Part shown: piece after piece, positions 9,517-25,391 of the stretch
How the letters are laid out: each line of letters opens with the position of its first letter
Position numbering within the stretch: position 1 is the first letter of the stretch
Assembly (NCBI RefSeq): GCF_000027125.1
Contig: NC_017626.1
DNA length: 64,000 nt
Strand: one strand, 5' to 3'
From: Escherichia coli 042
GTDB lineage: Bacteria; Pseudomonadota; Gammaproteobacteria; Enterobacterales; Enterobacteriaceae
Position numbers and translations under genes: made by a program
The notes under the pieces: model-generated
Told to the model about the DNA's origin: nothing
The model's input: the letters and a program-made list of their open reading frames with translations, nothing else
Database searches by the model: none

Positions 9517-9621
9517 AATTACTTTTCCTTCTAGTTGTCAAAAACATGGAATACAATTAAAAAAGGAAAAGGTCAAACCATAGGCAGAAGGTTGAATACT
9601 TTTTATTCCAGATTAAATAAC

Positions 9622-9695
9622 GCAGCGCGAGATGATTGTTCAAAACAATCACATTGCTGGAACAGGGTTCATCCCTGTTAATGATAGGATTCATC
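9622..9695 (+). repeat. twin-hairpin element copy R1 (candidate oriT/recombination site)
   Basis: gcagcgcgagaTGATTGTTcaaAACAATCAcattgctggAACAGGGttcatCCCTGTTaatgataggattcatc. It is repeated at 24950-25023, with 3 substitutions plus 1 indel over the 62-63 nt core. Confidence 0.85.
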
Positions 9696-9937
9696 TCAAA
9701 AAATGATGTTTTGGTTTTAAAAATATGATATTAGTAAGCTCAAAATAAAAACATGCAACACATACGAATGCAGTCACTAACATTAATTACCTGATACTCT
9801 CCGCGTTACTTATTTTATTGAATCAATGAAAACAATTTTACCTCTTGCTTTTTGACTCTGATTTCTGGTCTTAACCTGTGAATTGTGCAACACATAAAAG
9901 TATTTATAATTTTCACTATTTATTTTAAATTCTGCTT

Positions 9938-10276
9938 TCCCGCCTTACGGCGAGAGACTAATTTAACTACTTTTGCCCTTACGGGCGTTTTCTAAACACC
10001 AGAATCCAATATTATTATCCTACCTCAACCGTTTATCCGATTCCTACCTTTTTAATTTCACAGTCTGTAAAACTAGAGCTATTATTTAACTATAGAAAAA
10101 CATAAAACATTGTCGTTATTTTTAGCTCCTTTAGGAGATATAAAAATAAAGCAATGCCCACCTATACACTGCTACGCAGTGTGTGGGGTCTACCGACGGT
10201 TGCCTGCCGCAGGCTAACACCGTTTCCTTCGGAAACAAGGTCAACGTCAACACCAGAGTTTTTCTTACGAAAAACT
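9938..10276. other. hairpin-rich region upstream of the relaxase gene (candidate oriT / ssDNA-structure region)
   Basis: CGCCttacGGCG (9941-9952). GCCCttacGGGC (9975-9986). ACACTGCtacGCAGTGT (10166-10182). Nested ACGGT-tGCCTGccgCAGGCtaac-ACCGT (10196-10223). GTTTCCttcGGAAAC (10222-10236). AGTTTTTCttacGAAAAACT (10257-10276). The TTAC loop recurs. Confidence 0.45.
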
Positions 10277-10351
10277 AAAACCAGCTGAGTCGTATTGGAG
10301 ATTTATATTTTGGTTTGATATTTAAATTTATTTTGAGGTTGTTTTTATTAT

Positions 10352-11860
10352 ATGGCTATTTTTCATCTGGATTTTAAAATTGTGAAACGTTCTGAAGGCA
10401 GATCTTCCGTTGCGAAAGCTGCCTATCATGCTCGTACACGTATAACAGATGAAAGAACAGGTGATACCTATGATTATAGTCGCCGTACCGATTTATACGG
10501 ACATTTCATATTAGCACCAATTAATGCTCCAGAACATATCGTGAAAGACTCTACAGCATTGTGGAATGAAGTTGAAAGAGTTGAGCGCCAGAGCAATGGT
10601 CAAACATCCCGTTATTTCGATGTTGCCATACCTGCCGAGTTAAACAATGACGACAAGAAAAGACTTGTCCTTGAGTATTGTCAGAAAAATTTCGTTGATA
10701 AAGGCATGATTGCCGATATCGCTTTCCACGATCTTGATAGCGATAATCCTCATGCTCACGTTATGTTGACATTAAAAACCATAGGCCCTGAAGGTTTTGG
10801 TAAAAAAGAAAGAAGCTGGAACGACAGAAAAATGTCTGTTATATGGCGTGAATCATGGGCATCTATGGCTAACAGCTACCTTGCTGCCGCTGGCTCGTCA
10901 GAACGTATTGACCATCGTTCTCTTCAGGCCCAGCATGAAGAGGCATTAGAAAAAGCGGCGGTAGCTTTAGATAATGAAGAAAAAGCGCTATGGCTTGCTA
11001 AAGCCGCTGAAACAAACCGTCCTCCAATGAAGCGTATCCATAGTGCCAAATGGCGTAGTAAAGCAGCACAAGAGCAAAGAGCAGCAGAACAGGCTGTTCG
11101 TGATGCTGCCAAGCAGGAAGCGGTTGAAGTCTACAAGACTTTCAGCGAACTTGATCTTGAAATCGTCGTTGATGTCAGAAGCTTCACCGTGGCTGCTCTT
11201 GCTGAACCAGAAGAGATTGTATTACCAGAAACGCGCTCCGGCTCTTCTTCTCATGAAGCACAAAGTCCTGTATTGGTAGCGCCTATTCCTCATACTCATG
11301 TGCGTGGAGTTAAATCTTACCGCGATAAAGAAAAAGTGAGTAAAGTTGTCATTAATAATATATCAGAACCAAATGTTGCTGATGCTGACATAAACACTCT
11401 TTGGAAAACATCTCCATCTAAAACCAAAAATATGGCATCCAAAAGTACCGCTGAAAGTGTTAAAAGGAAACAGGCTAATCCGCGTCAGGATAATATCTTT
11501 AAACGCTTTACAACGCTTTTGATCGGTTTCTTCAAAGAGAAATTTATATGGGCTAAGAAGAAACCTGATCCTACCGAGATTGAACATGACAGGCATGTAG
11601 CAGAAAATTACGTCTTTGATGAAGTGCTGGGTGTCTATGTATCACGCGCTGACCATGAACAACGAGCCAGATTCAACGGTGATGATAAAGAGTTCTCTGG
11701 TTACAAGCCAACACCTGATGAGATTAAGCGTTTTCCAAGCCGTCTAGCTAATACAGCACAAACTGATAGAGAGCTCGACTACATGCCTTCGCTCGTGGCT
11801 GATAAGAAATCGTTAGCACCTAAATTGAAACCAAATGCTCCCTATAAAAATAGATTATAA
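10352..11860 (+). CDS. MobA/MobL-family (MOBQ-type) relaxase
   Basis: The N-terminus MAIFHLDFKIVKRSEGRSSVAKAAYHARTRITDERTGDTYDYS carries the catalytic Tyr region. The histidine triad HDLDSDNPHAHVMLT is present. The C-terminal half is low-complexity and no primase or helicase motifs are seen. Confidence 0.88.
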   Translation: MAIFHLDFKIVKRSEGRSSVAKAAYHARTRITDERTGDTYDYSRRTDLYGHFILAPINAPEHIVKDSTALWNEVERVERQSNGQTSRYFDVAIPAELNNDDKKRLVLEYCQKNFVDKGMIADIAFHDLDSDNPHAHVMLTLKTIGPEGFGKKERSWNDRKMSVIWRESWASMANSYLAAAGSSERIDHRSLQAQHEEALEKAAVALDNEEKALWLAKAAETNRPPMKRIHSAKWRSKAAQEQRAAEQAVRDAAKQEAVEVYKTFSELDLEIVVDVRSFTVAALAEPEEIVLPETRSGSSSHEAQSPVLVAPIPHTHVRGVKSYRDKEKVSKVVINNISEPNVADADINTLWKTSPSKTKNMASKSTAESVKRKQANPRQDNIFKRFTTLLIGFFKEKFIWAKKKPDPTEIEHDRHVAENYVFDEVLGVYVSRADHEQRARFNGDDKEFSGYKPTPDEIKRFPSRLANTAQTDRELDYMPSLVADKKSLAPKLKPNAPYKNRL

Positions 11861-12097
11861 ATGATAATATAATTCCCAAAAATATATCTTTCCCCTAAAG
11901 ATTGACCATATCATATACTAAATAACATCATGACTATATTCCTAAGTACTCAAAACCTTGAATTCTATCAACTAAAATGGTATATTATTTTGTTTTTTTG
12001 ATTTTCAATTGCATTGTGATAAGATATTTCATACATTGATTGAGAATATTAAAGAAACGATAATGTATCTTACTTTCATCAATTAGTCGAGGTTATC

Positions 12098-12628
12098 ATG
12101 TCAACTCCTGAGGATGCTTTCAAAAAAAAATTACTAGCTGCTCAACAAGAAAAAGATGAACTTGTTAGGAAAAATCAAATTGATGCAGAGCGTAAAAAAC
12201 AAATCATTGCTGAAAAAATTAGTTTTTATCAAAAACACCAAAATGATTTCATACAACAAGTTATTGAATGGGCCAGTAGTGCAGATTTAAATATCTCATC
12301 ACTTAACATTAGTTATTACGATTATGGTCATTTATTTCAAACAACAGGCATAAGCATTGAATATGATGGTAAAAAAGTTCAGTTTATTCCGCAAGGAGTA
12401 GAACGTGGAACTTTTCTAGGTATCATAAAATTAGATTTTACTAACGCAAATTCATTCATTCAATACTATTTCGGTTTGTCTGCCAATAAAAATGAAGCCG
12501 AACCATATTGGACTTTTGTTCAATATGATACTCAAAACCCTAGTGCTTGGCAGGAAAACTCAAAGCGCATGTCAAAAGAGCTATTCTTTGAAATAATTGA
12601 AAGTATATTACTTCCACCAAAATCATGA
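12098..12628 (+). CDS. hypothetical protein (N-terminal coiled coil)
   Basis: 176-aa ORF with an SD-like gaggt upstream, followed by a 10-bp-stem hairpin. No family recognised. Confidence 0.6.
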   Translation: MSTPEDAFKKKLLAAQQEKDELVRKNQIDAERKKQIIAEKISFYQKHQNDFIQQVIEWASSADLNISSLNISYYDYGHLFQTTGISIEYDGKKVQFIPQGVERGTFLGIIKLDFTNANSFIQYYFGLSANKNEAEPYWTFVQYDTQNPSAWQENSKRMSKELFFEIIESILLPPKS

Positions 12629-12640
12629 ATATTGAATATT

Positions 12641-12667
12641 AGAAAAGCACTCAAGCAGTGCTTTTCT
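12641..12667. terminator. hairpin terminator after 12098..12628
   Basis: AGAAAAGCACtcaagcaGTGCTTTTCT: a perfect 10-bp stem whose arms supply the A and T runs. Confidence 0.6.
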
Positions 12668-12947
12668 AAATACCATACTCATTTCATTATAAATGAACCT
12701 CGATTTTAATAATTTATACCCTGCCCCCATAATCTTTAATTGCCATATTTATTAATACTGAGATTTAAGCTGTGAGATATATATTTAATATAAAACCACG
12801 ATCGTGTGATAAGACGTTTTCTATATTTACTGGAAATATTAAAATCAAACTCTCCGCTTAAACATAACATTATCATTTATGCCTTGCTATTGGTAAGTAT
12901 TAATTTTTTATCTATACAAGAATCTATTATTCAGATAAAGATTCATC

Positions 12948-13208
12948 TTATTCCGCCCTGTCATAAAAATAAAATGACCAAGCATCACAGAACCATTTAA
13001 TATTTTTATCATCAGATGGATATTCATATCCTTTAAGATTCTCTTTGAGAAAAGATATTTGTGATGGCATCAGCATCCCAACAAGTATCTTTATTAGATC
13101 TTCTGAAGGATATTTATCAAACTCATCTCTGTTAATACCTGTTTTTTCTTCAATGATCACTGAAGCTTTAACTATCTCACATAAAACATCATCTTTTTTA
13201 TTTCTCAT
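12948..13208 (-). CDS. hypothetical small protein (86 aa)
   Basis: ATG 13208 is preceded by a strong SD (ataAAGGAGataata). MRNKKDDVLCEIVKASVIIEEKTGINRDEFDKYPSEDL... The track ORF extends to 13292 without an SD. Confidence 0.55.
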   Translation of the reverse strand: MRNKKDDVLCEIVKASVIIEEKTGINRDEFDKYPSEDLIKILVGMLMPSQISFLKENLKGYEYPSDDKNIKWFCDAWSFYFYDRAE

Positions 13209-13327
13209 TATTATCTCCTTTATTGTTTTATATTTAATACCATATAAACAATAAATGTCAAAAATATTTAAAGACAATTTAAGAACAATCAACCCTGAAT
13301 GTATTTGATATGTTGTTCAATACAATA

Positions 13328-13348
13328 AGCCCTGTATCAAACAGGGCT
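13328..13348 (-). terminator. hairpin downstream of the lipoprotein/membrane operon
   Basis: AGCCCTGTatcaaACAGGGCT, 32 nt after the stop at 13380. Confidence 0.5.
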
Positions 13349-13379
13349 ATATGAATTAAAGGTTACAGATTAAAAAAAC

Positions 13380-14030
13380 TTACCAGCTATCATTATTTCG
13401 CTTTTCAATTGCATCACGATAACGCTGTTGTTCCACAACATCCAGATTTGGATCAAATAACACACTTGATCCTTTCACAGCAATATCGGCATCAATCTCT
13501 GATTGGGGAGCATAGGCCTTATAACCATTAGGCTGTGAAGTGGCTGTGCGGATATATGTCCCATAGTGTTTCCCATTCATAGAACAACCGATGTAAGCCA
13601 ACAGGCAGGCAAACAGGAAAAAGAATGTCCATACTGTATTATAGCCGTTAATCGTATATCCACTTCCATTCACATCTGAAAACACGCCATTAAACCTGAC
13701 CGCATAGACAATCAGGAACGATGAAAGGATAACGGTTCTGCTTTTACCAACAGTTAAATGTTTACGCACAAATTTCACTGTTGGTAGTAGAGTGACCATA
13801 AAAAGAGCGATAGCAACACATACCAGCCATATAGGAAACAGTCCATATTTTTGTGTAATGTTCTGCGATACCGTCACCAAGGACAGCACCAAGAAGGCGT
13901 TGAGCAGAAAAAGTCTGACCGCCATCCATACCTTCACGTTCTTTTGCGTCTTACGGAGAAACAGCATCGGAGTCAGTGATGGTATGTTCATCAGCAGACC
14001 GATGATAAGCACCCAATAGATAGAGTTCAT
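13380..14030 (-). CDS. polytopic inner-membrane protein (about 5-6 TM), unknown function
   Basis: 216-aa ORF with several hydrophobic segments (e.g. VLIIGLLMNIPSLTPMLFL, LFLLNAFLVLSLVTV, IWLVCVAIALFMVTLL, VWTFFFLFACLLAYIGC) and a polar C-terminal tail. It starts 17 nt after the preceding gene's stop, so it is the last gene of a 3-gene operon. Confidence 0.7.
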   Translation of the reverse strand: MNSIYWVLIIGLLMNIPSLTPMLFLRKTQKNVKVWMAVRLFLLNAFLVLSLVTVSQNITQKYGLFPIWLVCVAIALFMVTLLPTVKFVRKHLTVGKSRTVILSSFLIVYAVRFNGVFSDVNGSGYTINGYNTVWTFFFLFACLLAYIGCSMNGKHYGTYIRTATSQPNGYKAYAPQSEIDADIAVKGSSVLFDPNLDVVEQQRYRDAIEKRNNDSW

Positions 14031-14046
14031 AGCGTTCTTCCTGTAA

Positions 14047-14601
14047 TTACCGGGCTTGCCAACCGTTATTGATTTTCACCAGAACAATTTTGGCTTCTTC
14101 TGGTTCAGACATCCCTTTCACGCCAGAGAAGGCATTTTTATCAACCCAGCCCGGCACGCCATCCAGTTTCCACGTATAGGTCACTTGCGTCATTTTAACG
14201 CCATTACCCTCACTCGGTTCAGTCCAGCTTTTAACCTCAGCTACGGCACGGTGACCAACACAGGCACCATCTTTACGATCCCAAAACTCAACCTCTTGGC
14301 CTTTGTCTGTTACTTCCAGAACATCTACGCTGCTAAAGCCGTTAGGTTGCTGCGAAACATCAAGCAGTCCCTGATTAGCCAGACCTTTCAAGATTTCATC
14401 ACTGGCACTGTATCCAGCAGAACGATAGCCATGGTTGACCTTAACCGGAAAACCTTTATTGAACGTAAAGTCATTGTCCTGAAGGGAGTAGCAGACCTTA
14501 GATTTTGATATATGCTCGTTTATCGCTTTCTCAAAGTCGCCTTTTTCACCGCAGCCTGATAACAACACGGCAAGTCCTGCAATGACTAAAAATTTACTCA
14601 T
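14047..14601 (-). CDS. lipoprotein, unknown function
   Basis: Signal peptide plus lipobox MSKFLVIAGLAVLLSGC|G. 184 aa. There is a 15-nt gap to the upstream lipoprotein gene. Confidence 0.75.
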   Translation of the reverse strand: MSKFLVIAGLAVLLSGCGEKGDFEKAINEHISKSKVCYSLQDNDFTFNKGFPVKVNHGYRSAGYSASDEILKGLANQGLLDVSQQPNGFSSVDVLEVTDKGQEVEFWDRKDGACVGHRAVAEVKSWTEPSEGNGVKMTQVTYTWKLDGVPGWVDKNAFSGVKGMSEPEEAKIVLVKINNGWQAR

Positions 14602-14615
14602 GGTTCTTATTCCTT

Positions 14616-15194
14616 TTAATGATTGATAGTGCCGTTTCTCAGAACAACCAGACGAACTGGCATATCGGCATTGTTTACTGTGGCGAAGCCACGAACTTCG
14701 AAGTTGTTGACTGTTCCAGTGACACTGACTTTCTGGCCTTTCTTGTAAGTAAGAACCGCATCATCAATACCAGAGTAGTAATCCAGCCAGACCATCCCGC
14801 CGCAGTAGCTTGTATCGGCTGTTTTAAAGAGCAGATAATAATTAGGGGCTGATTTGGGCATTCCCGTCATCATATCGCTGGCACTTCTGCCCTTCGTAAC
14901 CTCAAGAACAGTGGCATTGGTGATAGCGATCCTTTTGCCAGTCCATTTTTTTTCTGCTGCCATCGCATTTTCTTCATAGTCTTTGCAGACAGCACCAAGG
15001 CCAGTAATGGACGTCGCTGGACCACTATCCTGACCGGAAGCTGAAACCCGCAGCGCTTTATCAACGGTGCTGTTCAATGATGCCAGTGAAGAGTTAATTG
15101 CCCCATTAACGCTATTCACGCCTTCGTTGAGTTGCTGGCAGCCAGAAAGAAACACCAGAGAGATCGCCAGTGGTAAGAAGTTATGTCCTTTCAT
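14616..15194 (-). CDS. lipoprotein with C-terminal OB-fold (tRNA_anti-like lipoprotein family) domain
   Basis: Lipobox MKGHNFLPLAISLVFLSGC|Q. The C-terminal region ...WTGKRIAITNATVLEVTK...YYLLFKTADTSYCGGMVWLDYYSGIDDAVLTYKKGQKVSVTGTVNNF resembles the OB-fold putative-lipoprotein pattern as I remember it. Confidence 0.7.
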   Translation of the reverse strand: MKGHNFLPLAISLVFLSGCQQLNEGVNSVNGAINSSLASLNSTVDKALRVSASGQDSGPATSITGLGAVCKDYEENAMAAEKKWTGKRIAITNATVLEVTKGRSASDMMTGMPKSAPNYYLLFKTADTSYCGGMVWLDYYSGIDDAVLTYKKGQKVSVTGTVNNFEVRGFATVNNADMPVRLVVLRNGTINH

Positions 15195-15319
15195 TTATTC
15201 CTCAAGGATTTAGTCAGATTCGTATACCCCAATCCCGGCGCACTGACCTATAGATCAGGAGTTATCGTCTAATCAATTGATAGAATTGAATTATTTTTAG
15301 TGTTCGTCACATCGTTTAA

Positions 15320-15452
15320 ATCGATCGATATAAAACAAATGATAGACTCAGGCTATCATAGATAATATATCGATCGATAATATCAATTAAAAAACCGATC
15401 GATAAATCACTTTCAATCGTTAATGCCTATCAATATAAATTTATCGATCGAT
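15320..15452. promoter_or_regulatory. four ATCGATCGAT-type palindromes in the divergent promoter region (operator array; each contains a Dam GATC site)
   Basis: aATCGATCGATa (15320-15329). TATCGATCGATA (15368-15379). cCGATCGATA (15395-15404). TATCGATCGATt (15442-15452). Centre-to-centre spacing is 49/25/49 bp. An extra IR ATGATAGactcaggCTATCAT lies at 15339-15359. Confidence 0.6.
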
Positions 15453-15529
15453 TTTACAGATCATTTTGCTTGAGTATGTTGGCACTGGCGGCTATGCTGG
15501 GCTGAGATAAAGCAGTAAAACAGAGAGGG

Positions 15530-15985
15530 ATGAGCATGGAAAACAACAACGAGCGAAGCTCTATGGAAATCTTCGAAAAAGATCAAAAAATCGCTTTTGT
15601 TGACTCGTTCAGCGATGCTGCTTTGTCTTACGAATACGAACAGGCGGGCTTCACCATTAATTTAATGCAACGCTCGGTTCTTCTCTTTAACCATAATATA
15701 AAGAAAAACGTAACTGCCAAGCAGTTGCGTAAAAATAATATAAAGAATAACGTAATGTCTTCGACATTGCGTAAAAATATGAACAGCACATTTATATATT
15801 CATATAACAACATCAGGGAAATCAACTACTCGCTGCCTGATTGCAGATCCGATGATGCCGAGAACTGTATTATGATTGATGATGTATTAAATCCAGTCTG
15901 GACGTTCAGGGTTCCATCTCACGCACATTATATTTGCGAGCAATGGGTGGAAGTATTTAATAACCATATTTTCTTTGACCCATAA
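15530..15985 (+). CDS. hypothetical protein
   Basis: 151-aa ORF with SD gagaggg upstream. No family recognised. Confidence 0.55.
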   Translation: MSMENNNERSSMEIFEKDQKIAFVDSFSDAALSYEYEQAGFTINLMQRSVLLFNHNIKKNVTAKQLRKNNIKNNVMSSTLRKNMNSTFIYSYNNIREINYSLPDCRSDDAENCIMIDDVLNPVWTFRVPSHAHYICEQWVEVFNNHIFFDP

Positions 15986-16110
15986 ACAAAGTATTAAGCA
16001 AAAGGAAAATAAATATCTGACTAATGATATTAATTAATAGAATTATTTGCTTTTTAGCAAATTAATGTTTAATTATATACACATAGAATAATTGATATCG
16101 AGGTATATTT

Positions 16111-16581
16111 ATGTCTGGGAAAAATCCTTTTTGGAATTATGATTATAATGCGGCGCAACGTAATAGAGAAATTGTAGACTCTTACCAACAGGCAAATGAG
16201 GCAAGGCTGGATTCTCAACAGGCGCAGTTTGAAGCGTCTATGGCTAATGACAGGGTTAGCAGAATACAGATGCAGTTGAATAACACAATCAATAGCCATA
16301 AGAAGGTTGTGGCTGATTATGAGCAACGTCTTGAAGAATATAAACAAAATTTCTTTCGTGTAGCTTTACATAAAAACATTCTCTTCAGAACGGTTCGCAG
16401 ACTTCAGGAGGAATGGCCGGATAAAAATGAATTCATCCTTGATGAAATGCAAAGACAAAGAATTTTGTGTAATCAGCAGGACTATAGAGAAAGATGGTGG
16501 AATGCCATAAAAGATAATAATCTTGCTGACGATTATCTTGAGTTTCCATTTCCTAATAGAGAGATAAAAAACAAACCATAA
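16111..16581 (+). CDS. hypothetical protein (coiled-coil rich)
   Basis: 156-aa ORF (MSGKNPFWNYDYNAAQRNREIVDSYQQANEARLDSQQAQFEASM...). No family recognised. Confidence 0.55.
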   Translation: MSGKNPFWNYDYNAAQRNREIVDSYQQANEARLDSQQAQFEASMANDRVSRIQMQLNNTINSHKKVVADYEQRLEEYKQNFFRVALHKNILFRTVRRLQEEWPDKNEFILDEMQRQRILCNQQDYRERWWNAIKDNNLADDYLEFPFPNREIKNKP

Positions 16582-16695
16582 TAAGTAATTAACTATTCGT
16601 TCATAACATTATATTTATTTTAATAAGACACTAACCTGCTGTGTCTCCTAAAAACACGCCTATACATCAACCATCCATTTTATGGAATACTCATC

Positions 16696-16974
16696 ATGAC
16701 AACTACTTTGCATCCAAATTACGTTGTTGTATCAAAGCTAATATCTAAGTTTGACATTACACATGATAGTAGAGATGAGAATATTAATATCTTGATTTCT
16801 GTCATTTATGACTTGGATAACGGCAATACAATCGAATACTACATTAATAATCAGGAAGAGGCCGAGAAAAAATGCATTGAGAAAAACAGATTTTCAAGGA
16901 AATTTAAAAACCGCATTGATAATATATCACCTGAAGAAATCCGCTCGGCTAAAGATAATCACAAACCCAAATAA
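16696..16974 (+). CDS. hypothetical small protein
   Basis: 92-aa ORF. No family recognised. Confidence 0.45.
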   Translation: MTTTLHPNYVVVSKLISKFDITHDSRDENINILISVIYDLDNGNTIEYYINNQEEAEKKCIEKNRFSRKFKNRIDNISPEEIRSAKDNHKPK

Positions 16975-17097
16975 TAAATTTGAACTCAGGATGGAACTAA
17001 TGTCTATACCGTATAATGTATTGATTTTGTGCACAGGAACGATTAAAACTATGATGTTATTGCTTGTATTCTTTACCACAAACATTAGGGAAATCGC

Positions 17098-17505
17098 ATG
17101 TCTGATGCTTTAAAGATCATCAACAATATTCGTACTCTCCGTGCTCAGGCTCGTGAACTGACACTCGAAACCTTGGAAGAGATGTTAGAAAAACTCACTA
17201 TCGTTGTAGAAGAACGTCGTGAAGAAGAGGCCTCATTTCTAAAACAGCAGGAAGAGAAACAGGCCAAGCTGGAAGCATTCCGTCAGAAGTTGTTGGAAGA
17301 TGGCATAGACCCGGCAGAGTTGCTTTCAACTGTTAGCCCATCTTCTTCCAAGACAGGAGCGAAACGCGCCCCACGTCCAGCTAAGTATAAATATGTTGAT
17401 ACCGATGGTTCGGAAAAGACGTGGACAGGTCAGGGCCGAACTCCTCGTGCTATCGCTGCTGCGCTCGAAGCCGGTAAGACACTGGAAGATTTCGAGATCA
17501 AGTAA
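17098..17505 (+). CDS. H-NS family nucleoid-associated protein (island-encoded full-length paralogue)
   Basis: [44 protein letters not shown]... is the N-terminal oligomerisation domain. The C-terminal DNA-binding motif is [17 protein letters not shown]. 135 aa. It is distinct from the core stpA at 50350-50754. Confidence 0.92.
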
Positions 17506-17580
17506 TCTTCATACCATATGTCTACCAAATCCGCTCATTTTTCTTGGGCGGGTTTGTTGAACCAACCTACAGGGATTAAC

Positions 17581-18066
17581 ATGCCAATAAAAGAGTTCTT
17601 AATTATGAAATCAAAAGCCTTTATTAACTTCATGCGCACTGAACTAAAAAACACATTTACAACTTCTCCTTGCGAAAATAAATTAAGAAAGGCTATTTTT
17701 ATTTTTTCTTTATTAAATGCCTTAAATATCATAGGTTATTACATCCTCACATATAGTATGCAAATCCTGTTCCTGTTGCCTATTATTTGGGGAGGGTTAT
17801 TAGCACACGGGACTTACAAACGCTATGGAGATTTGCTTAGATCTGGTTCTGATTGTGCTCTTTTTCTGGTGGCTACTATTACATCAGCATATCTCGTCAT
17901 TAACACAGCAAGTGATGATGTCGATTTTTTTGAAAAGCATATGATAAATGGATTAGGTTTTTTGATTACATATGTTTTTGCTGTAGCTGCATCCGTTCGT
18001 TTTTATATCAGTGCAATAGATTTATATAATAGCTTTATTTCTTTTAAAAAATCAAAAGAAAAATGA
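17581..18066 (+). CDS. small membrane protein, unknown function
   Basis: ATG 17581 is preceded by cagggattaac. About 4 hydrophobic segments (e.g. IFIFSLLNALNIIGYYILTY, ILFLLPIIWGGLLAHG, LFLVATITSAYLVI, FLITYVFAVAASV). Confidence 0.5.
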   Translation: MPIKEFLIMKSKAFINFMRTELKNTFTTSPCENKLRKAIFIFSLLNALNIIGYYILTYSMQILFLLPIIWGGLLAHGTYKRYGDLLRSGSDCALFLVATITSAYLVINTASDDVDFFEKHMINGLGFLITYVFAVAASVRFYISAIDLYNSFISFKKSKEK

Positions 18067-18068
18067 AA

Positions 18069-18251
18069 TCACTCATCCTTAGAGTCCATATCTGCCCTGA
18101 GGATGATATACCAAAATACATGTATAAAGATAAACAATAAATTAAATGCATAAACCTTTTGATTCATTGCTATTAAGTTCACAAAAACACTCACAATAAG
18201 AAATAAATAGTTCTTTTTTCTATGTTCTTTTAGATACCTGATGAATAACAT
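18069..18251 (-). CDS. possible 60-aa two-TM membrane peptide
   Basis: ATG 18251 is preceded by a strong SD (atatGGAGGttatt). MLFIRYLKEHRKKNYLFLIVSVFVNLIAMNQKVYAFNLLFIFIHVFWYIIL... It is convergent with the previous gene. Confidence 0.4.
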   Translation of the reverse strand: MLFIRYLKEHRKKNYLFLIVSVFVNLIAMNQKVYAFNLLFIFIHVFWYIILRADMDSKDE

Positions 18252-18324
18252 AATAACCTCCATATTGAAAATATGGAAATTATTTAACATCTATCATTAA
18301 TAAGTCAAGGCAGTCTACAGGAAT

Positions 18325-19578
18325 TTATTCACTTGCCTGAGTCGCTCTTGTCGCATTTGTTTTTAAATTATTCAGCATTTGCTTATCAACCGGTTGCAGT
18401 TGTTGTCCTAACAGAGCCGCAAGCAAAATATTTGTGTCTTCTGTTCTTTCGATTTGAAGCATTTGTAATCTTAAATCAAGTGCCTGCATTCTTGCCTGCT
18501 CATGCGCAGTTTCTTTTTCATCAGCACTACTGATTTTTACCTGCCAAGCGTCAGCACCTGTTGTATCTGCATAGCGTGAATAGATCTCATATCTTAACAT
18601 TTCCCACTCTGAAGGATTATCCGGGAATGTTGTGCCGGGAAATAAGGTCGCATACTTGTTTTTTACGGAAGCATCTGACCAAGCAAGGTTTGCTCCCTGC
18701 GTAGAGCCCAATGTGGATCCTATTTTGGCCCCTCTGGAGTTCACTGATATATTACTTGCTTTTTTCATTGCCAGTACGGAATCAATGGCGTTTGTTCCAG
18801 CAGTGCTTCTGGAGACAAAGCTCGAAAAGGCCGATAAATATTCTCGACCTTCATTTGTGTCTTCTAATCCTTTGTTCTTCAATGGTTCAACGGGCAAGTT
18901 CCCTATAAGATTTCTTTTTGCCGCTTCAGCAACCTCAATCTGCTCAACAGAATAGGACTGATTCGAAACCTTATTAGACAATGCATCGGATTTAGATAAT
19001 GGTGGTGTAATCAGGCTTGATGCCGACTTATCTTTATCAGGATACTGACCTATAGTATTACACCCACCTCTGTTATATTTCACATCATCTTCGGAGCAAA
19101 CATTTATTGATACTCTGCCCATGATGTTTTTCTTGGCCTCATTTATTCTGGTATTTGCTTGTGTAAACATCTTAACGCTGTTTTCAGATAAAGCCTCTTT
19201 AGCTGAGCTTGTATTCGATCCTGCTGCACCACGACCACCTGCGCTCGTGACTTCTTCACAGGCGTTGGCATCAGGTATTCTGTTTAAGATATTTTTCATG
19301 CGCTGTTCTTGGATTGCCTGACTGGCATTACTGACAACCGCATTCTTCTGATTCTCACTGGCTGTTATGGTTGCTTGTGCCAGCTTGTCGTTCATTGAGA
19401 CTAATGTTTCAATTATTCCATTGCCCATAGATTGGGGTGAAGCCCCCATAAGATACGGTGTCAAAACCTCTTCTGTGACGGGCCAGACAGCGAAAGCTGT
19501 ATTTGTATATAATACAGAAAAACACAAAGCTGAAACCACTGTTATTCTCTTTACTTTAAATTTATTATTACTCATCAC
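18325..19578 (-). CDS. secreted/periplasmic protein, unknown (possibly IcmX/TraW-like partner of the TraY-like protein)
   Basis: 417 aa with signal peptide MMSNNKFKVKRITVVSALCFSVLYTNTAFA|V. It is Cys-containing, Ser/Asn/Ala-rich and has a C-terminal coiled coil. The functional guess rests only on neighbourhood and general features. Confidence 0.6.
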   Translation of the reverse strand: MMSNNKFKVKRITVVSALCFSVLYTNTAFAVWPVTEEVLTPYLMGASPQSMGNGIIETLVSMNDKLAQATITASENQKNAVVSNASQAIQEQRMKNILNRIPDANACEEVTSAGGRGAAGSNTSSAKEALSENSVKMFTQANTRINEAKKNIMGRVSINVCSEDDVKYNRGGCNTIGQYPDKDKSASSLITPPLSKSDALSNKVSNQSYSVEQIEVAEAAKRNLIGNLPVEPLKNKGLEDTNEGREYLSAFSSFVSRSTAGTNAIDSVLAMKKASNISVNSRGAKIGSTLGSTQGANLAWSDASVKNKYATLFPGTTFPDNPSEWEMLRYEIYSRYADTTGADAWQVKISSADEKETAHEQARMQALDLRLQMLQIERTEDTNILLAALLGQQLQPVDKQMLNNLKTNATRATQASE

Positions 19579-19924
19579 AACACTCCTGTTAACTTATTAC
19601 CTTCTTTATTATTTAACCAATTAAATATGAACTGTCAATTTTAACAAAAATATTCATCTGGCATCCAACTTTAAAATTATTATAAAAGAAGCGTATAAAT
19701 CCAACGAAGTAGATTCCATGAACTAGCGTGGTGCTTTTATAGCTTTATCGATGAAGATAGATAGCATGAAATAACTTTACTTTTACGGGAGCATAAAACT
19801 TTATAAAAGTAATGTTTCCATTCAAAAAAGCCGTAGCAATATTTTATTTTAGATGCAGCCATTTCAACTTTGTTTATAAGAAAAAATATAAAGTGAGTTT
19901 CATTGCAGATAATAATCAGTTAGA

Positions 19925-19944
19925 AAGAGGACCGAAGCCCTCTT
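19925..19944 (-). terminator. UUCG-loop hairpin after the TraY-like gene
   Basis: The minus strand reads AGAGGGCttcgGTCCTCTttct, starting about 5 nt after the stop at 19949. Confidence 0.6.
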
Positions 19945-19948
19945 AATA

Positions 19949-22609
19949 TCACATTCCATCATTACCTTCTTTTGATGATGAACTACCACCGGAAGATCCA
20001 CTACCGCTCCCTTTCTCTGGAGCCTTAAAGCTTTCAATTGGTGAAGCTTGGGCCTGTAAACTTACAGGCAGCAACGGTCTGTTATGTTCACCAAACGATA
20101 CCGCTCTGTTAGCAGCCTTTTGAGCTACATTCATATAACCTGCTGCGCCTGCTGTATCACCAATAGCATCTGCTGCCTCAGCTGCATGGTAAGCCGAGTT
20201 AGCACTTTCAAGAGACTGATATTCATCCTGCTGATCAAGTGGGCCAGCATTACTCATATGAGTTCTGAATGCAGATCCCGTATCATTGGCTTTATTAGCC
20301 GCCAGTGCTTTCCCCTGTTGAGCCTGTTGCTGTTGTTGAAGCTCACGTTGCTGTTCACGGTCTTTGTTAATTTGCGCATTCCTGATCTGATTACCCATCG
20401 CATTTGAGGTATGGGAAACCTGATCCAACACGGTTTTGGTAAACATAGCACCTTCAACACCTTTTGATGCCGACTGTGCGTAACCCGACATGCTCTGACC
20501 ACCATGAACACCAAGCCACTTCATAATTTCATCAGGGATGATGTGAATCAGTGAAAGTGATTTCTTCACTACCGTGAACATCATTGCAATATAAACAGCA
20601 ATGAGAGCCAGTGACTCGATGATACCTATCCCGGCATTGGCTGACATCATGCCAAAAGCGCCGGAGAATGTTTCGTTGACGATCCCACCAAGGATAGGGA
20701 GCATCGTATAGGCTGCTATTAATCCTGTTATCATTAGCGCTGGTCGCATGGTTAACGATAAAACCAGACCATAACCAGCGCCACCACGACCCACTACGCC
20801 ATCACCATCTGGATGTAAATGTGTTATTACCCATAATGGTGCTGCGACCATTGCTTCAAGGCACAGGATCATCCAGCCTACGCAAACACCAAACCACATG
20901 ACGTAAGGCAGCATAGGAATGACGACGGCTAAAGTATCGCCAGCTATCCATAAAGGGATAACCAGTGGCATAACAATCCCCATAGCGCCAAATGCACCCG
21001 ATACCCAGCTTGCAGTCGCTGATGTCCATGCGCCAAGACCTGCCCCAACAACAGCAGAACTCCCTAATAACGTCCAGCCAGCGGCACTGATCGTATCCCC
21101 AAGCCCTTTAACAGCTAATAACGGGTTTATTGCCTGTAAATTGGCAGCGGTTGTGTCCGTCGAGAACGAGACGATTTTCCCTTGTTTTCTTCCATTGATA
21201 ACGCTGGAACTGAGAAAACCCGCCATTGCACCAGAAATGCTCTTATTGGCTTCACTTTGAAGAGAAGAAACTATTTTTCCAGCATCATCTGTTTTAGGGC
21301 CTACACCACTTTTACCACTGGTATTGGCTTCCGTTCGGTTTTGCGCATCAATACCATTCGCATATCTTGAAGCTGTCGTTGATTTCGCCATATCTTGAGC
21401 CACTTTTGCCATAATCGCGTTCAGGCTGTTATCGAATATATCTCCGTATTCCATTGTCGCTTGCCCGGCTACAGGAAGATTATGAGCTGCTCCATTAATC
21501 GCATCCTGCACACGGATCAGTTTCATACTCCATGCGCCAGCCATAAACCATCCGTCTTTCTGGACATTCTCTTTGAAATCATCCCACTGGTCGCCAGTGG
21601 AGAAAACTGTTCGTACTGCAGTATCAATAATGGATACATATGAGGCCGTTGCGCTGTTTATTCCGGTCTGAATATCAATATTATTATCGGCCACATACTG
21701 TTCAGCCAGCGTTTTCATACTATTATCAAGGCCGATAAATGCGGCATTGTGTGCCTCAATAACATCTGAAATATTCGTCTTTATATCCTGTGGCATATAA
21801 GCCATATACATGCCGCCAGCAGCAATGGTAGCCTGAGCTTTAGCCTGTTCGTCATAAGAAGCTTTGGCCTTCGGGTCTGTAAGCGTGATGCTTCCACATG
21901 CAGCCTTGGATACCAGTAAATTTTTATTCATATCATTACCGGCATTGCTGGCTCCATAACTGTATGTGTATAAATAGGCACCTTTCTCCGGTGTCATTTC
22001 AAACGCAGGCGTGACGTGCGGGAAGGGATCGGCTGCTGCTGATTTCTTCCATAATTCTCCCGCCTTTAACATACAGACGTTATTGATAAAGGCGGTTTTC
22101 GCTATGCGATCAAGCTCCTGATAAGATGCAGATGTGGTAATAACAGCCCCATCTGAGGGGTTGGATGCATAGGTATTCCAGACGGTATCTGCCAGACCGA
22201 CTCCCTGATTAATCATCCACAGCACCATAACCTGAGCGGCACAGAAACCACCTGCTGCCGGGAGTATCATTGCCGTGCCTAATGCAGTTCTTACGGGCAA
22301 CCACATGGAAGACCATTTCTTACCCAGCATTTCTCCGTCATGTGCCGTTGACATGGTTCCGGCAATCAGTGTGTAGGCAGCTAAAATGCCACCAACCAGT
22401 AAAACAGCGCTGTTAAGGATTGTCATTGTGCTGGCTAAGGGACTTTCCGCTAAATTGTCCGGGAATAAGATATCCAGAAACCACAGCTTTGATTTGTCTG
22501 TCTCCGGGACGGTAAATAAATCTGCGGCATAAGCTGACTGAGTTAATAACAGGCAAGCTAATATTACTAATAATATCGATACTTCTTTTTTCTTTATATT
22601 TATCATCAT
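19949..22609 (-). CDS. DotA/TraY-family type IVB secretion integral membrane protein (orphan)
   Basis: 886 aa with an N-terminal signal/TM. The conserved-looking block is ...TAHDGEMLGKKWSSMWLPVRTALGTAMILPAAGGFCAAQVMVLWMINQGVGLADTVW..., followed by a long periplasmic-like region, then about 6 C-terminal TM segments and a Q-rich/Gly-Ser tail. The pattern matches what I remember of IncI TraY and Legionella DotA. Confidence 0.7.
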   Translation of the reverse strand: MMINIKKKEVSILLVILACLLLTQSAYAADLFTVPETDKSKLWFLDILFPDNLAESPLASTMTILNSAVLLVGGILAAYTLIAGTMSTAHDGEMLGKKWSSMWLPVRTALGTAMILPAAGGFCAAQVMVLWMINQGVGLADTVWNTYASNPSDGAVITTSASYQELDRIAKTAFINNVCMLKAGELWKKSAAADPFPHVTPAFEMTPEKGAYLYTYSYGASNAGNDMNKNLLVSKAACGSITLTDPKAKASYDEQAKAQATIAAGGMYMAYMPQDIKTNISDVIEAHNAAFIGLDNSMKTLAEQYVADNNIDIQTGINSATASYVSIIDTAVRTVFSTGDQWDDFKENVQKDGWFMAGAWSMKLIRVQDAINGAAHNLPVAGQATMEYGDIFDNSLNAIMAKVAQDMAKSTTASRYANGIDAQNRTEANTSGKSGVGPKTDDAGKIVSSLQSEANKSISGAMAGFLSSSVINGRKQGKIVSFSTDTTAANLQAINPLLAVKGLGDTISAAGWTLLGSSAVVGAGLGAWTSATASWVSGAFGAMGIVMPLVIPLWIAGDTLAVVIPMLPYVMWFGVCVGWMILCLEAMVAAPLWVITHLHPDGDGVVGRGGAGYGLVLSLTMRPALMITGLIAAYTMLPILGGIVNETFSGAFGMMSANAGIGIIESLALIAVYIAMMFTVVKKSLSLIHIIPDEIMKWLGVHGGQSMSGYAQSASKGVEGAMFTKTVLDQVSHTSNAMGNQIRNAQINKDREQQRELQQQQQAQQGKALAANKANDTGSAFRTHMSNAGPLDQQDEYQSLESANSAYHAAEAADAIGDTAGAAGYMNVAQKAANRAVSFGEHNRPLLPVSLQAQASPIESFKAPEKGSGSGSSGGSSSSKEGNDGM

Positions 22610-22625
22610 TACATTCCTTTGCCTC

Positions 22626-23150
22626 TTACTTCATTGAATTACTGATGCTGCTCCAGACATCGTTTCCGTTGACTGTTGCTCCCGATCCTGATGAAGAGCC
22701 AGTTCCTGTAGAAACACTTCCATTTGCGATATTCCCAATCACGGGCATATCAATAGAAATGCTTTCGGATATACTTCCGGTCAGTTGACTTACTTTTTCC
22801 CTCGCAATCGAACAGGCTTTACTTATTGCTGCTTCCTTCGTTTTTTTAATTATTGAATCCACAGATGGCAGGCTGATGCCGAGGTTACCCACAGGCCAAG
22901 CGTCCGTACAACCAATCGTCTCAAGTGACTGATTGATGTTATCCATGAAATTCTTCGCTACCGGCTCTAACTGAGCCGCATCCTGCTTCATTGCGTTATA
23001 TTGCGCTTGTTTTAATGATGAGCTGACATCCGGGCTACAGACTGCTGCATTAGCTGTGGTTGCTGAAATTAATATTGTTGCGGGAAGGATTATTTTGAAA
23101 ATGCGGACACAGACATTTGTTCGCCATTTATTTTTATTAAGTTTATTCAT
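22626..23150 (-). CDS. small secreted protein co-transcribed with the TraY-like gene
   Basis: 174 aa with a signal peptide (...ILPATILISATTANA|A), 4 Cys and a Gly/Ser-rich C-terminus. Its stop is 16 nt upstream of the TraY-like start. Confidence 0.6.
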   Translation of the reverse strand: MNKLNKNKWRTNVCVRIFKIILPATILISATTANAAVCSPDVSSSLKQAQYNAMKQDAAQLEPVAKNFMDNINQSLETIGCTDAWPVGNLGISLPSVDSIIKKTKEAAISKACSIAREKVSQLTGSISESISIDMPVIGNIANGSVSTGTGSSSGSGATVNGNDVWSSISNSMK

Positions 23151-23470
23151 TTGATACTCCTTTAATTTATTACATTTTATTCACCATATTTTCTTCTTGT
23201 GATTAAATAAAAATACAATGCCTTATTAATATATATTAAATAAAATAGAATTAATCAAGAGAACGATCATTTAATTTGACAATGACTTTATTTTTGATTA
23301 CTGTTTAAAAGTAAATAAATGATTACTCCAAAAAATTTATTACAATACTCTGAAGAGGCCAGTTTATCTGGCTTCTTTTAATTTAATAAGGATTTCACCT
23401 TCCACATTCCAACGTTTAAAATATGAATATATGTGTATAAAAAGTTCAGAGAAGTCGCGTTAATGGATCA

Positions 23471-24235
23471 CTAAATATTATCCCAATCTAACGGTTCTTC
23501 TGGTGGCACAAGACTTGTGTTCTCTACAGAAGGGATTTCATTTATACTTTCACTCTTCACTAACCCTTGAGACTTTTTAGCCTGCAATCTTGCGATTAAC
23601 AAATCTATCTCATCTTGGTTATTAACTTCTTGTATAACTGCTTCAATTGACCTGTTTTTATCTTTAAGTATGCTATTGCCACCGCCATTGACGACTATGC
23701 TTTCGGGTTGTTCTTCCATTGCTTCTTTCTTTTTTATAATCTCTGATACAAAGCGAGCACGATCACCATTGAAGACAATAGCAGGGTTTATGAAATACCA
23801 GTTTTTCTCATTGGTTTTAGCAATAATACGTTTTTCGATGAGTTCTTTGATACCTCTGTAAAAGATAGATTCAGACAAAACAAAGTGATCTATCTTTTCC
23901 GCAAGAGACATTGCCTTTTTACAGCTCAGGTAGAAATGATCTTTGCCTATCGCATCCTGATATATTCGTAAAAATATGAAAAACACTTTGTATGCTGTTT
24001 TCGTGAGATCAAAATATGCTTTTATCTGAGAGGTATAGAGTTTAATGAACTCTTCTTTATCGACCTCTTGTGTATGCACGATATTGGCGAAGTAGCTTTT
24101 ACCTGTATCTTTCTTTTCGATAAGTTCTGTGCCTCTTGAAACGGTCAGATTTTTCTTTCGTGTTTCAATCTTTAGCTCTGTCTCAAAGCAAAAAGGATTT
24201 AACCCTAAATCTAAGTCAACGTCTATTTCATTCAT
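23471..24235 (-). CDS. RepL-like winged-helix protein (candidate replication initiator/regulator) 1
   Basis: 254 aa. ...FVLSESIFYRGIKELIEKRIIAKTNEKNWYFINPAIVFNGDRARF... resembles the RepL-family pattern (wHTH followed by 'y.iNP...f.G'). A 4-unit iteron array lies 170-250 bp upstream. Confidence 0.55.
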   Translation of the reverse strand: MNEIDVDLDLGLNPFCFETELKIETRKKNLTVSRGTELIEKKDTGKSYFANIVHTQEVDKEEFIKLYTSQIKAYFDLTKTAYKVFFIFLRIYQDAIGKDHFYLSCKKAMSLAEKIDHFVLSESIFYRGIKELIEKRIIAKTNEKNWYFINPAIVFNGDRARFVSEIIKKKEAMEEQPESIVVNGGGNSILKDKNRSIEAVIQEVNNQDEIDLLIARLQAKKSQGLVKSESINEIPSVENTSLVPPEEPLDWDNI

Positions 24236-24401
24236 TTCATTATTACCTCTTGTTGTTTTATTTATAATAAATTAAATACCATGCACAAAAAAGATATCAA
24301 GTTTTTTGCATATTTTTTTGCGAAAATATTTTCAAAATCGCAACTATTCCAGTGACGATACTTTAAAGCACTGTCGTTTTTAAGCTAAAAATGACATAGA
24401 A

Positions 24402-24483
24402 ACTGACTGCAAAGTCAGGAAAGCTCACCGTGCAGTCAGGAATACTGACTATAGAGTCAGGAACACTGACTGTACGGTCAGTC
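24402..24483. repeat. iteron array 1: four tandem 20-21 bp units, each an inverted repeat ACTGAC-N5-AGTCAGGA
   Basis: ACTGACtgcaaAGTCAGGAa / gctcaccgtgcAGTCAGGAat / ACTGACtatagAGTCAGGAac / ACTGACtgtacGGTCAGTCgt. Unit starts are at 24402, 24423, 24443 and 24463. Confidence 0.85.
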
Positions 24484-24949
24484 GTATATTTTCGTTCTAA
24501 GCCTTATGCCGTAAGGGCTACAGGCCGGTTTTTTCTTAATTTAATTTTGCAAGAAGTAAGAGATAATACTTAATAGGATTAAAAGAAACCGGGCGATTTT
24601 TATAATCGCCATACAGGGTTTCAATATTTTAAATGATTAGTTTTTTTGAGTGCAATATTTATTTTTATTGCGAAGCATTTCTTTCTATTTCACTAACATC
24701 TTTTTTTTGAAAATCACCACCATCTATGAGCTGAAGCTCATGTGCTGACGCACGGCTACGCCCTAACTCTGAAATATGTATTTTTATCTTGATGAGGTGT
24801 CTTATTAATATTGATAGTAAAAAGAGGAAAGATCTTTTCCAGATCATTTCATCATAAAAAACAAAATTGATCCTATGTTTGAACATAGCATTACCGCAAT
24901 AACATATAGCATTTTCCCTTAAACGAATAGGAAAATTATATTTTCAGTA

Positions 24950-25023
24950 GCAGCACTTAGTGATTGTTCAAGACAATCACATTGCTGGAACAGGGTTCAT
25001 CCCTGTCAATGATGGATTTATCC
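24950..25023 (+). repeat. twin-hairpin element copy R2
   Basis: gcagcacttagTGATTGTTcaagACAATCAcattgctggAACAGGGttcatCCCTGTcaatgatggatttatcc. It has the same orientation as R1 (9622-9695). Confidence 0.85.
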
Positions 25024-25090
25024 ATAAAGAATTGCGGCGATAGCCGCTATGAAATAAAGGAGAAACAATTTCATCTGTACTCATATATAA

Positions 25091-25128
25091 GCAGTGCTAA
25101 GTGATTGTTTAAAACAATCACTTCGCTG
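25091..25128 (+). repeat. partial copy R3 (first hairpin only)
   Basis: gcagtgctaaGTGATTGTTtaaAACAATCACttcgctg. It shares the gcag-N7 leader, the 9-bp-stem hairpin and the CA(c/t)T(t/c)GCTG tail. It lacks the AACAGGG/CCCTGTT hairpin. Confidence 0.7.
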
Positions 25129-25166
25129 TAATAACATTATAGTAAAAATAAAATAGGTAGCACAAG

Positions 25167-25311
25167 GTGCCATTTTCATAAGGCACAAATGAGTTTCATA
25201 GCAAAACGTTTCTGGATAGATCAATTAAGAAATATTTCAATACAATTCATCCTTCATTGCTGAAAACCTCCAACGCCATTCATAAAACAGCAGGTGCCAT
25301 TCAACAGGCAC
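25167..25311. repeat. two copies of a GGTGCC-N8-10-GGCAC inverted repeat
   Basis: aaGGTGCCattttcataaGGCACaaa (about 25165-25190) and caGGTGCCattcaacaGGCACaca (about 25291-25314). Confidence 0.6.
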
Positions 25312-25391
25312 ACATTCCCTTTTACTATATTAAACTTATTACTATATTACAGCTGTTATTTCTCATATAAAACAACATATTACAGAAAAAA

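Follow-up and report, generated by a model that had tools for sequence, protein, structure and literature searches.

The window analysed here is a stretch of 64,000 nucleotides from the chromosome of Escherichia coli 042 (contig NC_017626.1), in which a low-GC island lies directly after ssrA. This island, a ROD21-like (EARL) mobilisable genomic island, carries a hairpin element, termed R, in two full copies (R1 and R2) and one half copy (R3). We propose, as a favoured but still tentative reading, that R is a protein-recognised, cis-acting DNA-processing hairpin, either a relaxosome-accessory or a strand-priming site, and that it is neither the nick site (nic) of an origin of transfer (oriT) nor a recombination site releasing a sub-circle. 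A cis-acting DNA-processing role was favoured because R is restricted to EARL islands, keeps a fixed layout, shows selected pairing and an invariant inner stem, is co-oriented with the relaxase gene mobQ, overlaps no predicted promoter and is independent of the replication (rep)-like gene beside it. The anatomy, conservation, covariation and distribution of R and the absence of recombinants were observed in the sequences, and from these we infer its binding partner, folded state and role.

The initial annotation of this stretch had described a direct repeat of twin hairpins, and the repeat itself was confirmed: the stretches 9622-9704 and 24950-25032, which lie 15,328 bp apart, match over 83 nt with an ungapped identity of 81%. 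The three substitutions and one indel then counted were close to what was found, since the 51-nt core (9632-9682 against 24960-25010) holds three differences, and beyond it an A indel and one more substitution fall in the third hairpin. The flanks had been called unrelated, which is not so on the 5' side, where GCAGC... is part of the element. R1, R2 and R3 are all on the + strand, co-oriented and far above chance expectation: the hairpin-1 palindrome GTGATTGTT-N-AACAATCAC was found at three sites in the window (9632, 24960 and 25101) against 0.01 expected, and hairpin 2 (AACAGGGttcatCCCTGT) occurs in the window in R1 and R2 only. DNA folding of the three copies gave z-scores of -4 to -6 relative to shuffled sequences. 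The copies are as follows.

9622-9704, + strand: R1, full element in the spacer between traD and mobQ; outer stem CAGC(G) at 9623-9627, inner stem ATGATTGT/ACAATCA, hairpin 2 at 9661-9679 and a degenerate third hairpin GGATTCATC.
24950-25032, + strand: R2, full element; outer stem 24951-24955/24983-24987, inner stem 24960-24967/24973-24980, hairpin 2 at 24989-25007 and hairpin 3 (TGGATttATCCA) at 25013-25024.
25091-25135, + strand: R3, half element; extended hairpin 1 only (outer stem CAGTG/CGCTG), then the tail TAATAAC.

Hairpin 1 proved to be longer than earlier described, with an outer 5-bp stem around the inner 8-bp stem; the outer stem reads CAGCA...TGCTG in R2 and CAGCG...CGCTG in R3 types. 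Because this outer stem encloses the inner one, the motif CAYTGCTG, which had been taken for a single-stranded tail, is largely paired. R is therefore a composite of an extended hairpin 1 (outer 5-bp stem, internal loop and fixed-sequence inner 8-bp stem), a hairpin 2 whose structure, more than its sequence, is kept and, in R2, a third hairpin. R3 always lies 138-142 bp past R2.

For the analysis of covariation, 29 distinct full R copies were aligned and pairs were counted over four helices. Standard pairs were observed in 93.3% of the cells, compared with 33-56% when the partner was slid, and 14 cells had changed on both sides against 3.2 in shuffled data (reached in 0 of 500 shuffles). Hairpin 2 showed compensatory changes at four of its seven pairs (CAGGG/CCCTG, CAGTG/CACTG, CAGGA/TCCTG, GGAG/CTCC and TAGGG/CCCTA). 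In the inner stem of hairpin 1, six of the eight pairs were invariant across at least eight genera while the loops varied freely, and one pair switched symmetrically from T-A to C-G. The fifth pair of the outer stem is A-T in R2-type copies and G-C in R3-type copies, a compensatory change between paralogs, and R1-type and R2-type copies each have sequence signatures of their own. The pair statistics and the near-invariant inner stem together indicate that pairing or dyad symmetry is under selection throughout R, and that hairpin 1 is additionally read for its sequence. The stem-loops are imperfect with pairing held by selection, as is expected of single-strand origins (sso) and single-strand initiation sites (ssi).

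Compensatory changes are also compatible with RNA stems, so that the R hairpins could form a small RNA, a leader or terminator-insulators transcribed over the intergenic block. Terminator-like hairpins are indeed in excess between 24200 and 25750 (7 against 0.8 expected), mostly on the - strand, and they include hairpin 4, which lies between R2 and R3. Nevertheless, no T-runs follow the R hairpins, no promoter was placed to transcribe R1, no Rfam match was found, the stems show no G.U strand bias, and an invariant 8-bp stem would be unusual in a purely structural RNA helix. We therefore regard an action at the RNA level as quite improbable.

The distribution of R among related islands was then considered. 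The island region was matched in 792 of 5,426 complete E. coli genomes (~15%). R2 was present in every EARL island examined (at least eight genera), whichever rep-like gene comes next, and the R2/R3 block was detectable in 780 of the 5,426 genomes; set against the presence of the cognate relaxase, the figure is ~780 of ~790 genomes. R1 in its own context was found in 220 genomes, about a quarter of the islands. Among the fetched islands, R1 occurred only where the relaxase N-domain was at least 94% (94-97%) identical to that of the window, and in all of those. It was absent from E. coli 536 (relaxase N-domain 80%), whose tcpC island has R2 and R3, and from a distant island group (72-75%). As R1 tracks the relaxases of at least 94% identity and is found in 220 genomes against ~780-790 with R2/R3, the comparison indicates that R2 and R3 form the ancestral, universal site, and that R1 is a later, lineage-specific copy placed in the traD-mobQ spacer.

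Copies of the neighbouring gene in Pectobacterium, Erwinia, Cedecea, Kluyvera, Serratia and Enterobacter were accompanied by a full R2 in 8 of 10 cases, and the half copy R3 lay 138-142 bp downstream in all eight except one Erwinia locus (L006), which is cut by the contig end. The two most distant loci (L011 and L012, 53-61% identity) gave no hairpin-1 match. A plasmid-borne EARL island of Klebsiella again has the trio, with one copy between traD and mobA and two, 140 bp apart, upstream of a 'replication protein'; its R1 and R2 are only 6.2 kb apart, and the DotA/TraY module is missing. A palindrome scan of the viral collection returned 37 stretches, in which every outer-stem match was in an EARL context and the others were unrelated palindromes. 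All true R copies in nine species loci, the viral-collection stretches, 11 metagenome contigs and the plasmid database, where the sole case is an integrated island, were in EARL contexts. R was co-oriented with mobQ in 12 of the 12 islands carrying both. In Pectobacterium colocasium (L004), positions 7400-10700 hold a tandem duplication of the unit R2-R3-rep-like gene, and an additional R2 copy there has the symmetric stem variant GTGATTGC/GCAATCAC.

These observations bear on the origin of the repeat, which the initial annotation had alternatively put down to a fusion of small plasmids. R as a passive scar, be it a pair of fusion junctions between two small plasmids or a generic intergenic repeat, would agree with the island backbone, which joins a MOBQ mobilisation module to a rep-like module as 4-kb MOBQ4 plasmids do. 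The fused-plasmid idea does not fit this island because R2/R3 are ancestral and R1 was added later rather than being a shared junction, and because the trio is also met with different content and with R1 and R2 spaced 6.2 to 15.3 kb apart. The generic repeat was not borne out either, as the element is absent outside EARL islands. Furthermore, the stems are conserved over at least eight genera while the loops drift, and the R2-R3 spacing and that between R2 and an upstream conserved block (block A) are fixed. A scar of either kind is thus very remote.

The same annotation had suggested that R1 and R2 might recombine and release a 15.3-kb sub-circle. The predicted R1/R2 deletion junction (traD side-R-rep side) and the reciprocal circle or tandem junction were constructed, and a match was defined as coverage of at least 80% of either junction; matches were found in 0 of the 5,426 complete E. 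coli genomes. In metagenomes, a degenerate pattern fitting R1, R2 and both hybrids retrieved 11 contigs, all of which were parental in their core signatures and flanks. No fixed recombinant product of R1 and R2 was present in these two large sequence collections. It is a long shot that, in the R1-bearing lineage, R would be a second relaxase recognition or termination site, with the island processed in two parts and the 15.3-kb segment transferred or replicated as a sub-element, without the integrase. Such processing would run from near mobQ to R2/R3, or in reverse, and the segment would comprise the relaxase, the cargo and DotA/TraY. If true, defence and virulence cargo could be shuffled among EARL islands by a modular route, as an 'island within an island'.

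The release or transfer of this segment had been attributed to R copies acting as MobQ oriT/nic sites, through initiation at one of R1 and R2 and termination at the other or through recombination between them. Part of this idea stood, since the host is mobilisable with a MOBQ relaxase and R1 is in the divergent traD-mobQ spacer; the nic assignment was not supported, as R lacks the nic core and is probably not the nick site. The features concerned are the following.

9205-9516, - strand: traD-like gene (Pfam TraD PF06412), divergent from mobQ.
10151-10217, + strand: 67-nt mobQ-proximal block; hairpin ACACTGC-tac-GCAGTGT and a near-invariant 35-nt tail.
10352-11860, + strand: mobQ, the MOBQ relaxase gene; the N-domain is residues 1-200.
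24724-24770, + strand: block A; inverted repeat ATGAGCTgaAGCTCAT, then invariant GTGCTGACGCACGGCTACGCCCT.

In R1162 and R388, relaxases are known to recombine directly repeated oriTs, and this was counted in favour of the oriT idea, as were the hairpin with a conserved 3' sequence and the relaxase's nearest solved relative, NES. Ti-type and MOBQ4 oriTs are located between a divergent accessory gene and the relaxase gene, and R1, between traD and mobQ, occupies this canonical position (PMC4700958, PMC6856555). The order hairpin-tail-mobQ also corresponds to the order inverted repeat-nic-mobA in a MOBQ4 plasmid (L017), and ICEclc offers a precedent of two oriTs for one relaxase (PMC6561031). Adjacency to the relaxase gene holds for R1; R2 and R3 lie 13 kb from mobQ here and 5-10 kb from it in other islands.

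The nearest plasmid relaxases, at 46-49% identity, belong to 4-kb MOBQ4 plasmids, whose oriT has been mapped to the 178-bp mobC-mobA spacer (PMC6856555). In L017 this spacer contains ...GATTGTGTGCGCCCTGCGGGGC with the canonical MOBQ core GTGCGCCCT (..GTG|CGCCCT..), and pIP501 TraA cleaves at a GpC within its nic site (PMC4981023). With up to one mismatch allowed, the core was found neither in R nor in any of the conserved spacers of six islands; the matches that the islands do contain were discarded as non-conserved and in coding or irrelevant places. When the L017 oriT was aligned globally and locally to the whole island, the scores fell inside the shuffled range. By hand alignment, the R tail CAYTGCTG agrees with the MOBQ core at ~3 of 9 positions. 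R is unlikely to hold the nick because the core is absent, the tails match poorly and two other blocks fit better. Moreover, the supposed tail is mostly paired in the outer stem, the 3' sequences of R2 and R3 differ, and 536-type and distant islands lack R1 although their traD and mobQ are intact. The hybrid junction was seen in none of the 5,426 genomes and none of the 11 metagenome matches, and either sub-segment would be left without the integrase or without the relaxase. On this evidence, an oriT/nic function of R with release of the segment is rather improbable.

The two other blocks, at 10151-10217 and 24724-24770, are better nic candidates than R, since they come closer to the pattern of a covarying hairpin stem followed by an invariant tail. 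The 67-nt block is 97-100% identical in all mobQ-bearing islands, occurs in 786 E. coli genomes and is situated 140-200 bp upstream of mobQ. Its hairpin (7-bp stem, 3-nt loop) covaries in the distant group while the tail is nearly fixed. Judged by position, which matches the expectation from Ti-type and MOBQ4 systems (PMC4700958, PMC6856555), it is the best candidate for the primary oriT of the family. A terminator-like hairpin on the - strand (10173-10150) falls within it, and the block may instead be a mobQ leader or an antisense RNA. Block A, for its part, ends in ...CTACGCCCT and so shares CGCCCT, the six bases 3' of the canonical MOBQ cut. A further block was noted beside the 67-nt block, at 10226-10285. 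At 9936-9992, the traD-mobQ spacer also holds two conserved GC hairpins with a common TTAC loop (CCCGCCttacGGCG(A/G)G and GCCCttacGGGC), the second of which resembles the GCCC-N4-GGGC hairpin overlapping the nic core in the L017 oriT.

R2 and R3, ~140 bp apart, share a ~450-bp conserved non-coding block with block A, between initiator-like genes. The initial annotation had placed them in an origin-like region, and this description held: the 1.46-kb spacer between the divergent winged-helix genes is highly organised, with two iteron-like arrays. From left to right it contains the CTGACT/AGTCAG array, block A, the palindrome CCTATGTTTGAACATAG, R2, hairpin 4, R3, hairpin 5 and the CTATAAC/GTTATAG array.

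23471-24235, - strand: SEN1990/RepL-like winged-helix gene, left neighbour; 29% identity, E = 6e-22 to the RepL of E. coli 536.
24396-24490: iteron-like array of ~7 CTGACT/AGTCAG half-sites, co-occurring only with the left winged-helix (RepL-like) family.
25034-25047: hairpin 4 (GCGGC/GCCGC), between R2 and R3; covaries to GCGTC/GACGC elsewhere and is terminator-like on the - strand.
25166-25186: hairpin 5 (GTGCC...GGCAC), past R3, kept in most islands.
25390-25485: iteron-like array of ~8 CTATAAC/GTTATAG half-sites, co-occurring only with the right winged-helix (lambda-O-like) family.
25693-26391, + strand: wHTH232, a weakly lambda-O/DnaD_N-like winged-helix gene, right neighbour; homologs are annotated 'replication protein'.

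The 536 RepL homolog passes the Pfam RepL cut-off, and the two arrays are probably the cognate binding sites of the adjacent winged-helix proteins. In 25 of 31 R2-type modules, block A precedes R2 by 203-224 bp; it accompanies none of the R1-type copies. The spacing of block A, R2 and R3 is constant with any of three unrelated rep-like families downstream, and the arrays change with those genes. Since block A, R2 and R3 remain unchanged when the rep-like genes are swapped, the variable rep-like proteins are unlikely readers of R, and they were disfavoured as its binding factor, with three unrelated families at the site, each having its own array. R does not behave as theta-type iterons would (tandem direct repeats of ~17-22 bp co-varying with their initiator gene), because it stays constant while the initiator-like genes swap, and it is the separate arrays that behave in an iteron-like manner.

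A near-identical island (97%) of E. coli 4/1-1 (L055) has a RepL-type gene at 28292-28840, immediately after R3, in place of the lambda-O-like gene; its traD is frameshifted (11978-12285). Because a different rep gene directly follows R3 there, the right edge of the R2/R3 block was read as a module boundary. A sharp crossover past R3, where BLAST alignments end at ~25133-25149, was rejected: identity decays gradually over the block and homology is then lost, which marks the end as a module boundary and not as a nic-type junction. Small leftward open reading frames beside R2 were tried as TraD paralogs and gave no family match.

This layout also raises the possibility that R is a duplex operator, through which a conserved dimeric or tetrameric protein of the island or the host would co-regulate traD/mobQ and the rep-like genes via two divergent promoter regions. 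Palindromic, invariant inner half-sites around a free spacer speak for this reading, as does the position of all R copies inside two divergent intergenic regions. Ti-type relaxosome proteins are described, in the account of Cho and Winans (2007) relayed by PMC4700958, as autorepressing divergent promoters at oriT, which was counted for an operator. In a consensus-only scan, however, no predicted sigma-70 promoter overlapped R1, R2 or R3, and R3 is ~565 bp from the downstream start codon. The asymmetric conserved internal loop, the paralog-specific compensation in the outer stem and the covarying hairpin 2 would be unexpected for a simple operator, and the adjacent winged-helix genes, with iteron-like arrays of their own, are swapped while R stays unchanged. 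An operator function is accordingly considered unlikely, although it deserves a serious hearing.

We return to R as a cis-acting DNA-processing hairpin. In the proposed mechanism, R would act on the island's own DNA during transfer or replication, either in the form of an extruded cruciform or as a fold of the single strand unwound by the relaxase. A conserved protein would bind the folded form, and the bound R could serve as a relaxosome-accessory or termination site or, in the manner of ssi and sso elements, could prime the complementary strand. The relaxase N-domain is the leading candidate reader because it is the best-conserved protein segment of the island (72-97% identity, against 41-95% for TraD, 43-83% for AlpA and 31-83% for the integrase); the co-occurrence of R1 with the relaxase clade of at least 94% identity was also counted toward it. 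IncQ plasmids have ssi hairpins beside their iterons, which are used by a MOBQ relaxase-primase. Single-strand origins act in an orientation-specific manner, as does the sso of ICEBs1, which consists of several stem-loops and is backed up by a redundant second site (PMC4595007).

Several results weigh against this proposal. The invariant palindrome would also fit a duplex operator, and the co-orientation with mobQ is not independent evidence because the synteny is conserved. One-sided stem changes were split between G.T and A.C as 6 against 4 events (p = 0.75), so the folded strand of R is not callable, and an impression that the + strand folds was withdrawn. R had no credible family match in Rfam at the gathering or E-value thresholds (StyR-143 reached 15 bits against a cut-off of 176), and it shows no sequence similarity to known oriTs. 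The C-terminus of MobQ carries no primase signature and had no PDB or Pfam match, for which reason the idea of an IncQ-like relaxase-primase was dropped. Finally, deletion of SEN1990 left the copy number of the ROD21 island unchanged (PMC10655114), which weakens a replication role for the R2/R3 region.

The assignment of the host island was based on its gene content. A 99.9% identical island in AHB1 is annotated in RefSeq with an integrase, TraD, a MobQ relaxase, a SEN1982-family lipoprotein, an H-NS-like protein, TraW-family and DotA/TraY-family proteins, an AlpA-type regulator and DUF6387, and such a gene set is the hallmark of ROD21-like (EARL) excisable, mobilisable islands (PMC6035254). 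In the window, the P4-type tyrosine integrase (3871-5142) is beside the tmRNA (3384-3746), and the AlpA-type recombination directionality factor is at the far end (28281-28514; Pfam Phage_AlpA, 9.5e-18). The combination of TraD and a MobA/MobL (MOBQ) relaxase without a complete type IV secretion system, which is part of the definition in PMC6035254, was also found, only DotA/TraY-like and TraW-like genes being present. The accessory backbone (H-NS-like, SEN1982-type lipoprotein, SEN1990/RepL-like and DUF6387) was recognised through the annotation of the AHB1 island. The relaxase scored 1.7e-56 with Pfam MobA_MobL, 1.6e-77 with NCBIfam MobQ and 7e-53 with the Ti TraA model, and the solved structures nearest to its N-domain are NES 4HT4 (5e-26) and then MobA 2NS6 (9e-7).

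The TraW-family and DotA/TraY-family genes are at 18325-19578 (- strand) and 19949-22609 (- strand), with no other parts of a type IV secretion system in the island, and the nearest plasmid relaxases (MOBQ4) are mobilised by the IncI1 plasmid R64. Because the island has TraW and DotA/TraY alone and its MOBQ4 relatives use R64, analogy with SGI1 and IncC suggests a possible remodelling of an IncI-type helper secretion system by the island. The ssrA 3' end (3722-3746) had no second copy (at least 17 nt, at most two mismatches) anywhere in the window, so attR was not recognisable. The right island end, at ~29,850-29,900, was taken from comparison with AHB1 alone, and the ypjA autotransporter region comes next. 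In a low-GC stretch past the EARL island, ARAGORN and Rfam place a tRNA with a CAT anticodon (Met) at 37995-38070 (- strand), which RefSeq annotates as tRNA-Ile at the homologous L014 locus. Positions 46257-46407 contain two 62-nt direct repeats of 89% identity, one of which overlaps an Rfam naRNA4 (REP-type) match at 46305-46381.

ROD21-like islands also occur in Salmonella, in Klebsiella ST258 and in plant pathogens (PMC6035254, PMC10763509). Their excision and mobilisation are known, and their cargo includes virulence genes (TcpC/TlpA TIR proteins), anti-phage systems and H-NS-like silencers. For this family the literature searched gives neither an oriT nor any further cis-acting site, and it describes neither the R module nor block A nor the 67-nt block; the island family, the relaxase and the mobilisability were already known. 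These three non-coding features are concrete candidates for the missing cis sites, and R2/R3, rather than R1, would be the first copy to test. A cis-acting hairpin signal of mobilisable elements, as R would be, is of a kind already known, and no unprecedented mechanism was found.

Compared with the MOBQ oriTs (RSF1010/R1162, pSK41/pLW1043 NES, MOBQ4 and Ti traA-traC), the island is alike in its homologous relaxase N-domain, in the location of R1 between a divergent accessory gene and the relaxase gene, and in an inverted repeat followed by conserved sequence toward the relaxase, as in L017. It differs in that R is without the GTGCGCCCT core and has no detectable similarity to the 178-bp MOBQ4 oriT, the universal copies are 9-15 kb away from the relaxase gene, each island carries 2.5 copies, and the 'tail' is paired. 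ICEclc, with oriT1 and oriT2 for one TraI relaxase, similarly has several related cis sites on one integrative element, one of them tied to replication of the excised form (PMC6561031). ICEclc is, however, a self-transmissible MOBH element whose sites have been shown to be functional, whereas R is a putative site and R1 occurs in only about a quarter of islands. As in the oriT recombination catalysed by R1162 MobA and R388 TrwC, oriT-like direct repeats flank a segment on a relaxase-encoding element; the difference is that no recombinants were found in the 5,426 genomes or the metagenome contigs, and R is probably not nic.

IncQ ssiA and ssiB adjoin the oriV iterons, and R is likewise beside iteron-like arrays and initiator-like genes, with a redundant second copy; the difference from IncQ is that MobQ has no detectable primase domain. 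Like these sites, the sso of rolling-circle replicating plasmids and sso1 of ICEBs1 (PMC4595007), R is a cluster of stem-loops with conserved sequence and is strictly co-oriented. R1 also precedes, on the same strand, the candidate nic block close to mobQ, much as the sso lies upstream of the double-strand origin in most rolling-circle plasmids (PMC4595007).

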